Virus record (IMG/VR): IMGVR_UViG_2724679538_000006
Source: a virus
Taxonomy: Duplodnaviria > Heunggongvirae > Uroviricota > Caudoviricetes
Length of the DNA stretch: 4,312 bases
Reading direction: 5' to 3' (one strand)
The position numbers and the translations under genes were made by a program. The notes beneath the pieces are model-generated. The model searched no databases. It had not been told where the DNA came from and was given only the letters and a program-made list of their open reading frames with translations. Positions 2,900-4,312 of the stretch are shown here, piece after piece (the first letter of the stretch is position 1; the number at the start of each line of letters is the position of its first letter).

Positions 2900-2911
2900 T
2901 CCTCACGCTCC
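2900..2911 (-). promoter_or_regulatory. Ribosome-binding site for J (minus-strand sequence GGAGCGTGAGGA immediately 5' of the ATG)
   Basis: The reverse complement of 2900..2911 is GGAGCGTGAGGA followed directly by ATG GGT AAA. The GGAG core lies 8 nt before the start codon, which is canonical spacing. Confidence 0.7.
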
Positions 2912-2941
2912 ATAAACGACAAAACCGCCCGCAGGCGGTTT
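2911..2941 (-). terminator. Intergenic stem-loop between I and J: perfect 8-bp stem with 4-nt loop, followed on the transcribed strand by a T-rich tract (terminator-like or attenuator/mRNA-processing hairpin)
   Basis: Plus strand 2922..2929 aaaccgcc, loop 2930..2933 cgca, 2934..2941 ggcggttt are exact reverse complements. On the minus (mRNA) strand this reads AAACCGCC-UGCG-GGCGGUUU followed by UGUCGUUUAUGG, that is a GC-rich stem followed by a U-rich run, located between the I stop (2961..2959) and the J start (2899). Confidence 0.3.
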
Positions 2942-2958
2942 CACATAAACGTTTTTCA

Positions 2959-3630
2959 TCAGCGACCAATCACCACAACCTGACCACCATCCCCTTCGTC
3001 TGCCGTGCTGATCTCCTGAGAGACCACCCGCGACCCCACGCGCATTTCACCGTACAGAACCGGCAGAACATTGCCCTGGGCAACCATGTTATCCAGTGAG
3101 GAGAAATAGGTGTTCTGTTTGCCGTTATCCGTTGTCTGTGTACGGGGAGTTCTGGCTTTCGGTGCCAGCATCTGCGCCACACCACCGAGCACCATACTGG
3201 CACCGAGAGAAAACAGGATGCCGGTCATACCACCGGCCCCAATGGCTGCCCCCCATGCTGCAAGGGTGGCTCCGGCGGTAAAGAATGATCCGGCAATGGC
3301 GGCAGCCCCCAGGACAATCTGGAATACGCCACCTGACTTGGCCCCGGCGACTCTGGGAACAATATGAATCACAGCGCCATCAGGCAGAGTCTCATGTAAC
3401 TGCGCCGTTAACCCGGACGTGCTGACGTCCCGCCCGGCAATCCGTACCTGATACCAGCCGTCGCTCAGTTTCTGACGAAACACCGGGAGCTGTGTGGCCA
3501 GTGCGCGGATGGCTTCAGCCCCCGTTTTCACACGAAGGTCGATGCGGCGGCCAAATCGTTGCAAATCCCCGTAAAGGCAGATGCGCGCCATGCCCGGTGA
3601 CGCCAGAGGGAGTGTGTGCGTCGCTGCCAT
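2959..3630 (-). CDS. I: Tail assembly protein I (223 aa): N-terminal ubiquitin-like domain ending in Gly-Gly, then a Gly/Ala-rich hydrophobic C-terminal segment
   Basis: Complete ORF in the track (MAATHTLPLASPGMARICLYGDLQRFGRRIDLRVKTGAEAIRALATQLP...QVVVIGR). I recognise it as phage lambda gpI, with the same 223-aa length. A GAGG-containing purine run precedes the ATG. The gene order L-K-I-J and the I-J spacer of about 60 nt match the lambda arrangement as I remember it. Confidence 0.95.
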   Translation of the reverse strand: MAATHTLPLASPGMARICLYGDLQRFGRRIDLRVKTGAEAIRALATQLPVFRQKLSDGWYQVRIAGRDVSTSGLTAQLHETLPDGAVIHIVPRVAGAKSGGVFQIVLGAAAIAGSFFTAGATLAAWGAAIGAGGMTGILFSLGASMVLGGVAQMLAPKARTPRTQTTDNGKQNTYFSSLDNMVAQGNVLPVLYGEMRVGSRVVSQEISTADEGDGGQVVVIGR

Positions 3631-4271
3631 TTGTCGGTATACCTCTCTCGTTTGCTCAGTTGTTCAGGAATATGGTGCAGCAGCTCGCCATCACCACAGT
3701 AAATGGCGGCATGATTCGGCACCGATGAACCAAAACAGCACAGCAGCACATCGCCCGGTTGTGCTGATGACAACGGCACCTGATACAGCCCTGTGGCCTC
3801 CAGATTATCCAGATAGAGATTCTGACCGTGACGCCACCAGTCATCCCCGCGATGAAAATCCGGCATCTCAATCCCCGCCAGATGGTAAGCGTCCCGGAAC
3901 AGCGTGTAACAGTCCGTCACCCCGTGCTCAAAGCGCCGCCCGGTAAGATGCGGCACACAGCGGAATTTATGAATCGCCCCCCGGCAGACCAGCCACCACG
4001 GCAAATCACTCTGCACCTGCAGCCGCCGGTCGGCCTCACTCAGCCAGGGCAGACCACCGGGGTGGCTGTGGACCAGCGCCACAATCTCACCCTGCATTTC
4101 TGCCTGCAGCCAGTCCTCCGGCGACATCCGGAAATACGCCTCCGGCTCACCGGAGATATTCACGCAGGGGAAATATCTTTCCCCCTCCGGCGTTCTCACC
4201 ACGAAGCCGCACGACTCCGCTGGCGCACATCGCCGGGCGTGCGCCAGAATCGCTGATTCTGTCTCTGTCAT
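3528..4271 (-). CDS. K: Tail assembly protein K (247-aa long form): N-terminal JAB/MPN (JAMM) metalloprotease-like domain plus C-terminal NlpC/P60 cysteine peptidase-like domain
   Basis: Complete ORF in the track starting MTETESAILAHARRC. The JAMM motif HSHPGGLPWLSEAD (H68, H70, S78, D81) is coded at about 4029..4070; I checked codons 4068..4062 directly and they read His-Ser-His. The NlpC/P60-like catalytic Cys lies in HGVTDCYTLF (C121, about 3909..3911), with histidines downstream (HAAIYCGDGELLHH). The ATG lies 5 nt after the L stop codon. The 3' end overlaps the I start by 103 nt in a different frame. An alternative start at Met49 (4127..4125) would give the 199-aa form that I recall classic lambda annotation using. 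Confidence 0.9.
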   Translation of the reverse strand: MTETESAILAHARRCAPAESCGFVVRTPEGERYFPCVNISGEPEAYFRMSPEDWLQAEMQGEIVALVHSHPGGLPWLSEADRRLQVQSDLPWWLVCRGAIHKFRCVPHLTGRRFEHGVTDCYTLFRDAYHLAGIEMPDFHRGDDWWRHGQNLYLDNLEATGLYQVPLSSAQPGDVLLCCFGSSVPNHAAIYCGDGELLHHIPEQLSKRERYTDKWQRRTHSLWRHRAWRASAFTGICNDLAAASTFV

Positions 4272-4276
4272 GGGAT

Positions 4277-4312
4277 TTACTGCGAAAGTTTGTTAATGGA
4301 AAGGAAGCCGCC
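4277..4312 (-). CDS. L: Minor tail protein L, 3'-terminal fragment (last 11 codons plus stop); the rest lies beyond the window end
   Basis: The reverse complement of 4277..4312 reads GGC GGC TTC CTT TCC ATT AAC AAA CTT TCG CAG TAA, that is GGFLSINKLSQ-stop, which matches the C-terminus of lambda gpL as I recall it (...NFGGFLSINKLSQ). It sits directly upstream of K, as in lambda. Confidence 0.8.
   Translation of the reverse strand, partial: GGFLSINKLSQ

Follow-up and report, generated by a model that had tools for sequence, protein, structure and literature searches.

A ubiquitin-like domain and a JAB-domain partner in the tail-tip genes of a lambdoid phage: family comparison points to G96-A97 as the probable cut site of protein I

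Why does a phage tail-tip protein carry a ubiquitin-like (Ubl) domain next to a gene for a deubiquitinase-like protease, and at which bond would the one be cut by the other? We addressed this question for protein I and its neighbour K in a window of 4,312 nucleotides, i.e. the whole stretch of viral DNA that was analysed. The region very probably specifies the gpK-gpI step in the assembly of lambda-type tail tips. This system is already known: it was predicted in 2006, structures appeared in 2023-2025, and cleavage was reported in 2025-2026. Hence, the finding is a correct re-identification, not a discovery. A comparison across the family points to G96/A97 rather than G100-G101 as the scissile bond.

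On its minus strand, the window carries the tail-tip cluster of a lambdoid phage: the end of L, followed by K, I and most of J (Table 1). The stop codon of L and the start codon of K are 5 nt apart, and the ORFs of K and I overlap by 103 nt. Positions 2900-4312, at the I/K end, show 98.7% identity to lambdoid phages. According to the ORF map and Pfam, I is placed between a K-type gene (JAB plus NlpC/P60) and a J-type central fibre gene. The order in phage 21 is identical, and the phage 21 record annotates an identical 247-aa CDS for K. The J ORF continues past the window edge and has Pfam matches to Phage-tail_3, FNIII-A_GpJ, Ig_J, Ig_J_second and Phage_Tail_Tip.

Table 1. Features of the tail-tip cluster, with positions in the window.
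Feature	Position	Strand	Basis
Gene J, central tail fibre / tip attachment protein, first 966 codons	1..2899	-	Pfam
GC-rich hairpin then U run, between I stop and J start	2916..2946	-	RNA fold
Gene I, tail tip assembly protein I, 223 aa	2959..3630	-	ORF list, near-identity to lambda gpI
C-terminal plug and beta-strand domain of I (residues 158-223)	2962..3159	-	PDB 9e7m, virion models
Hydrophobic helix H2 of I (about residues 136-155)	3166..3225	-	AF2 helix 136-155
Hydrophobic helix H1 of I (about residues 102-129)	3244..3327	-	AF2 helix 101-129
Linker K98-S99-G100-G101 of I, includes GG at 3328..3333	3328..3339	-	84-homologue alignment
G96-A97, conserved C-terminal dipeptide of the beta-grasp domain of I	3340..3345	-	Homologue alignment, hhalign
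Predicted Ubl beta-grasp domain of I (residues 14-97), MoaD/ThiS/SAMP type	3340..3591	-	
Gene K, tail tip assembly protein K, 247 aa	3528..4271	-	ORF list, Pfam, phage 21 annotation
NlpC/P60 domain of K (residues 111-224)	3600..3941	-	Pfam NLPC_P60 (PF00877)
JAB domain of K (residues 4-98)	3978..4262	-	Pfam Prok-JAB, motif
Gene L, 3' end	4277..4312	-	Direct sequence reading; layout as in phage 21 annotation

Protein I is identical to lambda gpI (PDB 8iyk, 8iyl, 8k35, 8xcg) at 221 of 223 positions, with the substitutions A50V and I164T. Lambda gpI ('TAPI', PF06805) and gpK ('TAPK') are essentially the same proteins as those studied here, and share the K-I-J order and the K/I overlap; K here has 247 aa with a complete JAB domain. 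Pfam Lambda_tail_I (PF06805) matched residues 14-97 of I with a score of 100.1 bits (E = 9.7e-29; Pfam gathering cut-off 23.8), and PHROG 32 'tail assembly protein' matched at E = 3e-83. The true start of I may be M14 (at 3591): residue 14 is the first residue of the Pfam match and of the homologues of I, and NCBI cluster P0012 (5268 members) annotates I from M14. A profile search with the diverse I alignment returned nearly exclusively enterobacterial proteins and did not make the sample more diverse. The gpI precursor would consist of the Ubl (14-97), a variable linker (98-101), a Gly/Ala-rich hairpin (102-155) and a plug/beta-strand domain (158-223).

Structure prediction confirmed that the N-terminal domain adopts a beta-grasp fold of the ThiS/MoaD/SAMP branch, as the preliminary description of this DNA had expected. 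The AF2 model had a pLDDT > 93 over residues 15-92, and the best Foldseek matches were SAMP1, MoaD and CysO. The reading of the adjacent, overlapping gene K as a fusion of JAB and NlpC/P60 was likewise borne out by Pfam (E = 5e-14 for Prok-JAB and E = 1.6e-12 for NLPC_P60). Its JAMM motif comprises E19 (4215..4217) and H68-x-H70-x7-S78-x2-D81 (4029..4070), spelled out as H68-S-H70-PGGLPWL-S78-EA-D81. E19, H68, H70 and D81 were kept in every aligned K of 82 I-neighbouring homologues (with one gapped row at E19), while residue 78 was S or T. The NCBIfam desampylase family matched the N-terminal domain of K weakly (E = 6.8e-7, below the family cut-off).

The association of Ubl, JAB and NlpC/P60 was described in comparative genomics by Iyer et al. 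in 2006 (PMC1779556), in line with the preliminary description. We found a JAB plus NlpC gene at most 1.6 kb upstream in 104 of 119 Ubl-bearing I ORFs of viral contigs with sufficient upstream sequence to judge. Thirteen of the 15 I ORFs without an upstream K were second copies on contigs that also carry a K-I pair. The fold, the catalytic motifs, their family-wide conservation and the gene linkage are established by the present analysis. Among the I homologues examined, none was a genuine I without Ubl. A 127-aa Ubl-less I in Salmonella phage STSR3 was rejected, with an upstream ORF that has JAB plus the start of the Ubl; a split or a frameshift of the gene is the likeliest explanation. Six E. 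coli singletons (P0009, P0013, P0015, P0017, P0029 and P0048) were rejected as natural K-I fusions, because their junctions fall within domains; we regard them as decayed prophage genes altered by deletion or frameshift.

The virion content, the cleavage of the Ubl by gpK and the membrane spanning of H1/H2 are taken here from the literature, as reported or predicted. The 2006 study predicted that the JAB domain cleaves the Ubl of gpI, and described the arrangement found here, with a Ubl, a Gly-rich region and a C-terminal domain next to a JAB plus NlpC/P60 partner (PMC1779556). Virion cryo-EM shows the C-terminal part of gpI alone, with models that begin at residue 101, 134 or 135 (PMC11101478, PMC12617516, PMC10721106), those from 134/135 extending to 223 (PMC12617516, PMC10721106). 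Virion mass spectrometry detected one gpI peptide with 9.87% coverage, for which the C-terminal tryptic peptide 202-223 is the sole fit. Moreover, gpK is absent from virions (PMC10721106). According to a 2025 conference report, a meeting summary rather than a data paper, gpK cleaves the gpI Ubl once gpI has been incorporated into the tip complex; this summary is also the sole report of proteolytic activity of the JAB-type protein K toward a Ubl C-terminus (PMC12908700).

A comparable process was described for the F-type pyocin of Pseudomonas aeruginosa, in which the tip plug PA0640 and the maturation factor PA0639 are homologues of gpI and gpK. Mass spectrometry showed removal of the N-terminal part of PA0640, which was present in stalled tips and missing from mature particles. 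Only residues 127-200 were visible in the particle, and deletion of PA0639 yielded tubes without tips (2026 preprint, 10.64898/2026.02.24.707460). This particle differs in being a tailocin, not a phage, and its authors do not regard the responsible protease as established. When PA0640 was expressed alone, its N-terminal region was lost to unknown E. coli proteases (same preprint); therefore, K is not strictly required for this removal in every setting. The I profile matched PDB 25vf_9 and 9l9p_A. Given the meeting summary and the mass-spectrometric data on the F-pyocin, the earlier statement that the biochemistry of this system is poorly established is outdated.

These observations suggest the following sequence of events. 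The C-terminal part of gpI would enter the gpJ/gpL hub as a trimer, plug the tail-tip lumen and clasp the tape-measure protein at its C-terminus. Next, gpK, the product of the overlapping upstream gene, would remove the gpI Ubl by means of its JAB domain, a JAMM zinc protease; gpK itself is not retained in the particle. The uncut Ubl would accordingly serve as a checkpoint or chaperone of assembly that is later taken off, rather than as a modifier for conjugation. Upon infection the plug would open, and the H1/H2 hairpin would be freed toward the outer membrane, where it possibly inserts.

The C-terminal part of gpI remains in the virion as a trimer within the gpJ/gpL hub, and the plug has been assigned to gpI residues 159-175 (PMC11101478). 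The chains of PDB 9e7m span gpI 133-222, where I is near-identical (one substitution, I164T), and the conserved residues of this domain are F176, N181, G186, P190, G194 and G199. The segment between Ubl and plug is Gly/Ala-rich and hydrophobic, as noted earlier: Gly and Ala make up 45% of residues 102-157 versus 21% of the remaining protein, and there are no charged residues between K98 and K158. Its hydrophobic string had been placed at residues 104-146 (3193..3321). The actual string, QIVLG...QMLAP, comprises 54 residues from 104 to 157 (3160..3321), so that a lower bound of 3193 cuts H2. Neither does the segment form a glycine zipper, but rather a two-helix hairpin: GxxxGxxxG was found neither in I nor in 72 of 75 diverse homologues, and the Pfam glycine-zipper families did not match I at E ≤ 0.01. 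Looser small-xxx-small-xxx-small patterns occurred about 3.6 times per hydrophobic segment. The Kyte-Doolittle 19-residue mean reached a maximum of 1.78 over residues 94-157, and 62 of 75 diverse homologues had at most one charged residue in the segment. G108 in H1 was invariant across the aligned homologues, while G143 and G150 in H2 did not vary among 46 homologues; in the set of 75 they were kept in 73 and 72, respectively.

In the virion, the hairpin encircles the C-terminus of the tape-measure protein (PMC11101478; 10.64898/2026.02.24.707460), and residues 137-152 of I have been described as hydrophobic (PMC10721106). There, H1 and H2 sit inside the tail tip, and their spanning of or insertion into a membrane is a prediction and hypothesis of the structural studies (PMC12617516, PMC11101478). 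[quoted passage not shown] In contrast to gpI, the T5 plug is an insertion in one large hub protein, without a Ubl or JAB step.

Which bond of gpI would be cut? The preliminary description had ended the Ubl at G100-G101, correctly located at 3328..3333, and had raised the possibility that the JAB domain of K cuts after Gly101, as deubiquitinases do after the GG of ubiquitin. A C-terminal Gly-Gly immediately precedes the classical cut of JAMM enzymes, and residues 15-101 of I indeed read ARICLYGDLQRF...VAGAKSGG. Since I contains four GG dipeptides (at 100, 133, 149 and 215), GG by itself is uninformative. Conservation gave a different picture. Among 84 diverse I homologues, G96 was kept in 82 and residue 97 was A, S or G in 77; G96 was also kept in all 83 K-linked homologues. 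The conserved terminus of the Ubl reads P92-x-x-x-G96-[A/S]97. With hhalign, residues 77-96 of lambda I paired with MoaD 61-80, G96 matching G80, so that G96-A97 aligns with the C-terminal G80-G81 of MoaD and is, unlike G100-G101, its homologous position. In the profile match to PDB 4n6e_B, the G96 column lies one residue short of the C-terminus of 4n6e_B. Conversely, G100 was kept in only 40 of the 84 homologues, 42 had a GG in the linker, and linker length differed by up to 5 residues.

A cut after Gly101 has some evidence on its side: G101 was kept in 64 of the 84 diverse and 77 of the 83 K-linked homologues, and AF2 starts H1 at residue 101, which would place the bond at a domain boundary. 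It is nevertheless less likely than a cut at G96/A97, because the domain terminates at G96-A97, G100 is poorly kept, and there is no GG at this position in a cyanophage family in which the modules are fused. A single polypeptide of 322 aa in cyanophage MED4-117 unites JAB, Ubl and plug; it lacks NlpC/P60 and has 808 metagenomic relatives. The Ubl of this family ends in 'PIVSGA' followed directly by 'WFW', so that the hydrophobic helix comes after 'SGA' without an intervening Gly. The model of fusion P0358 (mean pLDDT 54, pTM 0.43) was too low in confidence to place the Ubl tail relative to the JAB site. Furthermore, H1 is said to be visible in the closed lambda tail from residue 101 on, a figure that may be approximate (PMC11101478); a cut after Gly101 is disfavoured because this residue, at which the lambda model starts, would then be lost from the virion. 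Overall, we consider cleavage after Gly101 unlikely. From the family alignment we infer that the scissile bond lies at or beside the invariant G96-[A/S]97, with G96-A97 as the most likely site of the K-dependent cut; the mature fragment would therefore begin near A97 or K98 rather than with the residue that follows G101. We did not find the exact cut site stated in the literature on gpK-gpI. The observation made in the preliminary description is confirmed, and its interpretation is partly supported.

The cut might also be made by the other half of K. The catalytic residues of NlpC/P60 equal those of the JAMM motif in conservation, with C121 and H187 invariant and H200 present in 82 of 83 sequences. 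However, the cyanophage family keeps JAB fused to the Ubl-plug without NlpC/P60 in its tail cluster, Ubl-JAB pairing is general across prokaryotes (PMC1779556), and the conference report credits a protein with a 'deubiquitinating domain' (PMC12908700). It is therefore very unlikely that NlpC/P60 rather than JAB cuts gpI. A separate proteolytic substrate of NlpC/P60 in tail assembly is a speculative idea to which we give a small chance, because the triad is conserved, K is absent from virions, and NlpC/P60 is dispensable for JAB-Ubl pairing in cyanophage. If true, K would be a two-protease maturation factor, whose JAB domain cuts gpI at G96/A97, not at GG.

The Ubl could instead stay on in the virion, flexible and unseen; PMC11101478 speculates that it might act as an enzyme. 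The cryo-EM papers call the N-terminal domain merely 'unresolved' (PMC10721106, PMC11101478), and it has been considered as the missing cell-wall hydrolase (PMC11101478). Yet, the domain is a small beta-grasp without catalytic motif, and three copies of 10 kDa would need room in the narrow lumen of the tail tip. The virion mass spectrometry coverage fits the C-terminal peptide alone, though the Ubl offers several good tryptic peptides, and its removal follows from the conference report (PMC12908700) and the F-pyocin mass spectrometry. Retention of the Ubl is highly improbable.

Hor et al. (10.1101/2023.09.04.556158) raised the idea that DUB domains in siphophage tail assembly proteins counteract Bil (bacterial ISG15-like), a host defence of Ubl, E1, E2 and DUB that conjugates its Ubl via E1 and E2. 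In this case the JAB domain of K would mainly strip Bil-type Ubl from the central tail fibre, with the gpI Ubl as a decoy or unrelated, and a gpJ homologue is indeed the Bil target. K is, however, required for tail assembly in Bil-free hosts (Ur-lambda, PMC12617516; deletion of PA0639 in F-pyocin), and the Ubl is encoded in cis, adjoining or fused to JAB. Unlike Bil, the phage module lacks E1 and E2, and its Ubl is joined to the partner by translational fusion. As the main function, counter-defence is a faint prospect; anti-Bil activity could be an additional role of the JAB domain.

The phage pair also invites comparison with prokaryotic JAMM/Ubl pairs. In HvJAMM1 (desampylase)/SAMP1, Mec+/CysO and QbsD/QbsE, a JAB protease cuts at the C-terminal Gly-Gly of the Ubl, and the freed C-terminus serves sulfur transfer or E1-like conjugation. 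These pairs resemble gpK/gpI in combining a MoaD-type beta-grasp with a JAB protease partner. In contrast, gpK/gpI has no E1, residue 97 is Ala or Ser, and the useful product would be the C-terminal fragment instead of the Ubl. That the gpI Ubl is a ThiS/MoaD-like sulfur carrier or conjugated modifier, activated at a C-terminal glycine, is hardly tenable: MoaD, SAMP1 and CysO are its nearest structural relatives and Iyer et al. named thiolation as a formal possibility (PMC1779556), but the Ubl is internal to the 223-aa I and thus has no free C-terminal Gly-Gly for E1 activation, its family-conserved residue 97 (Ala here) is not Gly, and neither the window nor those related tail clusters that we inspected contained an E1-like domain or an E1-, ThiF- or MoeB-like gene.

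The virus would thus use a Ubl and a deubiquitinase-like protease as a built-in assembly checkpoint, without conjugation machinery. Such a checkpoint is relevant to the question of how ubiquitin-type systems originated in bacteria and viruses, and to the maturation of siphophage and tailocin tail tips.

A GC-rich hairpin separates I from J. A consensus terminator scan did not report it, and returned one site inside I, at chance level (1 found, 1.1 expected). By RNA folding the hairpin has an energy of -23 kcal/mol (z = -3.8 versus shuffles), and its position bears a 'terminator' annotation in phage 21.

The N-terminal domain of I is a ubiquitin-like (Ubl) domain next to a JAB-domain gene. This feature is real and was correctly recognised in the preliminary description, although two details are corrected here. 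Pfam Lambda_tail_I matched I residues 14-97 (E = 9.7e-29). An AF2 model built from 46 diverse homologues (alignment A1) had pLDDT > 93 over residues 15-92, with strands at 15-19, 29-32, 60-64 and 87-92 and the main helix at 37-47, elements arranged as in a beta-grasp. A fold other than beta-grasp, the outcome named beforehand as refuting the proposal, was thus not obtained. Foldseek comparison of this domain with the PDB placed SAMP1, MoaD, CysO and Urm1 at the top and ubiquitin, NEDD8 and SUMO next, with E-values of 1e-4 to 1e-2 and TM-scores to the target of ~0.7.

The neighbouring protein K showed significant Pfam matches to both domains attributed to it beforehand, Prok-JAB on residues 4-98 (E = 5.1e-14) and NLPC_P60 on residues 111-224 (E = 1.6e-12). 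Its JAMM signature (E19 and H68-x-H70-x7-S78-x2-D81) is complete, and it also has the NlpC/P60 triad (C121, H187, H200). These residues were kept in essentially every one of 82 distinct K homologues, all adjoining I homologues in viral contigs; S78 was S or T, and H200 was Q in one sequence. Judged by this conservation, both active sites of K are under selection. The NCBI 'desampylase' model matched the N-terminal domain of K weakly (E = 6.8e-7, below the family cut-off), mirroring SAMP1 among the top structural matches of the Ubl.

The Ubl had been proposed to end at G100-G101. The coordinates given for A15 and for this dipeptide are correct, but the terminus is misplaced. Since I holds four GG dipeptides, a GG alone means little. 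Among 84 cluster representatives with <62% identity to lambda gpI, taken from 3157 matches, P92 was kept in 80, G96 in 82, and residue 97 was A, S or G in 77, whereas G100 was kept in only 40 and G101 in 64. A GG anywhere in the linker occurred in 42 of the 84, and linker length after the Ubl differed by up to five residues. When the N-domain profile (A2) was aligned by hhalign to E. coli MoaD (sequence confirmed against PDB 1fm0_D), lambda 77-96 matched MoaD 61-80, which pairs G96-A97 with G80-G81 at the end of MoaD. The ThiS/MoaD protein 4n6e_B, a weak profile match, ends in the same register. In a cyanophage fusion family, P-[ILV]-V-S-G-A runs straight into the hydrophobic helix WFWIAAAL without an intervening Gly. 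These conservation counts, the MoaD alignment, the 4n6e_B register and the cyanophage motif indicate, at the sequence level, that the canonical Ubl terminus is G96-A97 and that G100-G101 lie in a variable linker. K would probably cut I at or adjoining G96-[A/S]97; the argument for this site is the present analysis's own contribution.

To survey linkage of I and K, 118 viral loci were retrieved with two distant homologues of I as queries. Upstream sequence was sufficient for 119 Ubl-bearing I ORFs; 104 of these had a JAB+NlpC/P60 gene <=1.6 kb upstream, and 13 of the 15 exceptions were second I-like copies on contigs also holding a K-I pair. The K-I-J order was common to phages of Vibrio, Moraxella and Pseudomonas. 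In cyanophage MED4-117 (locus L120 1793..2761, JF974321.1), a single 322-aa protein combines JAB (5-102), a ThiS-like Ubl (134-210), the hydrophobic hairpin and a gpI-type plug; an NlpC/P60 gene was not found in its tail cluster. Marine metagenomes contained 808 relatives of this architecture, of which the best 120 were all 321-325 aa, so the fusion is not an artefact. Fusions of this type argue that the functional partner of the Ubl is JAB, not NlpC/P60. The fusion corresponds to PHROG 35166, listed as 'unknown function'.

The Ubl/JAB feature is already known. Iyer, Burroughs and Aravind 2006 (PMC1779556) described 'TAPI', with a Ubl bearing a conserved C-terminal glycine, a Gly-rich linker and a C-terminal domain, and its neighbour 'TAPK' (JAB + NlpC/P60), and predicted that JAB cuts at the C-terminal-most glycine and so frees the Ubl. 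Lambda gpI (PDB 8iyk, 8iyl, 8k35, 8xcg) is identical to I at 221 of 223 residues, the sole differences being A50V and I164T. In lambda virion and tail structures, gpI is represented by its C-terminal part alone, beginning at residue 101, 134 or 135 (PMC10721106, PMC11101478, PMC12617516). In virions, gpK was not found, and mass spectrometry detected one gpI peptide at 9.87% coverage (PMC10721106), a value that no tryptic peptide fits except the C-terminal one of 22 residues, 202-223. According to a 2025 plenary talk report (PMC12908700), gpK cleaves the gpI Ubl only when gpI is already bound to other tip proteins, a dependence that enforces assembly order. An F-pyocin preprint (10.64898/2026.02.24.707460) reports, by mass spectrometry, the same N-terminal removal in the gpI homologue PA0640, and a tip-less phenotype for the gpK homologue.

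The evidence best supports maturation of gpI by a self-contained Ubl/JAB step. The Ubl would prevent the gpI precursor from leaving its pre-assembly state, and K would remove the Ubl after the plug has taken its place in the J/L hub; the gpI fragment that is left would plug the tube and hold the tape-measure end. Hor et al. (10.1101/2023.09.04.556158) speculate that phage DUB domains of this kind may also counter Bil defence.

The hydrophobic string noticed after the Ubl is present, but its extent, given as residues 104-146, was too short. It comprises 54 residues, 104-157, so that the earlier lower bound cuts into H2, the second hydrophobic helix. Residues 102-157 are 45% Gly+Ala, no charged residue occurs between K98 and K158, and AF2 predicted one helix at 101-129 and another at 136-155. 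In 75 diverse homologues, Gly/Ala/Ser made up 42% of the segment on average, and 62 had <=1 charged residue there; G108 was invariant, G143 occurred in 73 and G150 in 72. The term 'glycine-zipper-like' is only loosely apt: the segment is Gly/Ala-rich and uncharged, but the strict GxxxGxxxG motif was absent from I and from 72 of the 75 homologues. In published structures, the tail helices of I are H1 and H2, which lie above the plug (159-175) within the tail tip (PMC10721106, PMC11101478). Both are lost from density when the tip opens on LamB, and their membrane insertion was proposed from TMHMM, not seen (PMC11101478, PMC12617516). In the homologous F-pyocin, the visible part of the plug protein wraps its N-terminal helices around the tape-measure C-terminal coiled coil (10.64898/2026.02.24.707460).

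Coordinates of genes and features in the window
Feature	Position	Strand	Source
L, last 11 codons + stop codon	4277..4312	minus	ORF map
K, 247 aa	3528..4271	minus	ORF map
K residues 1-49 (first JAB helix + E19)	4125..4271	minus	
K/I overlap, 103 nt, different frames	3528..3630		
I, 223 aa	2959..3630	minus	ORF map
I residues 1-14, start codon uncertain	3589..3630	minus	
A15 of I	3586..3588		
G100-G101 of I	3328..3333		
Hydrophobic string of I, 104-157	3160..3321		
Terminator-like hairpin in I coding region, H2	3220..3237	minus	consensus scan
GC-rich hairpin then U run, between I stop and J start	2916..2946	minus	
J, first 966 codons	from 2899 downward	minus	ORF map

Every long tail-module ORF in the window lies on the minus strand. 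Over its I/K end (2900-4312), the window shares 97.5-98.7% identity with many lambdoid phages, among them mEp460, phage 21 and lambda relatives, and the same K, I and J genes are annotated in phage 21, with K in its 247-aa form. The K start codon lies 5 nt past the L stop codon. In the classical lambda reference, K is annotated with only 199 aa, from an internal Met start, which would truncate the protease domain.

The K/I overlap specifies the C-terminal tail of K in one frame and, in another, the Ubl's first beta-strand; in most of the distant homologues the overlap is only 4 nt (ATGA). Pfam and nearly all homologues begin at M14 of I (ATG at 3591), as does NCBI cluster P0012 (5268 members, 210 aa). 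A start at M14 would shorten the overlap to 64 nt, the same overlap as in the lambda-like relative L002, which is without the upstream start. Residues 1-13 may be untranslated or lineage-specific.

The hairpin between I and J (-23 kcal/mol, z = -3.8) is annotated as a terminator in phage 21; termination at this point, partway through the late tail operon, would reduce J compared with I if there were no read-through. The hairpin within I is most likely due to chance (1 site found versus 1.1 expected from shuffles).

Some tail clusters hold two full-length I paralogues, 66-67% identical and each with its own Ubl (L053 1734..2842, also L054, L064, L066, L067, L015 and L059, the last two being the same contig, IMGVR_UViG_2667527686_000005). 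The second copy is in tandem (K-I-I'-J) or follows a J-like gene without an adjoining K, which leads one to ask whether plug trimers are mixed, or whether one K serves two substrates. In Salmonella virus STSR3 (L124 1477..2791, MT500539.1), a K-like ORF comprises JAB and the first 35 Ubl residues, and the 127-aa ORF after it has nothing but the C-terminal part of gpI, a split of a K/I region that looks like a frameshift or assembly error. E. coli genomes contain many singleton chimeric or internally duplicated I forms (proteins P0001, P0002, P0009, P0013, P0015, P0017, P0029 and P0048), the chimeric partners being fragments of K, L or a terminase-like protein; chimeric and duplicated forms alike seem to derive from prophage copies of this locus that have decayed.
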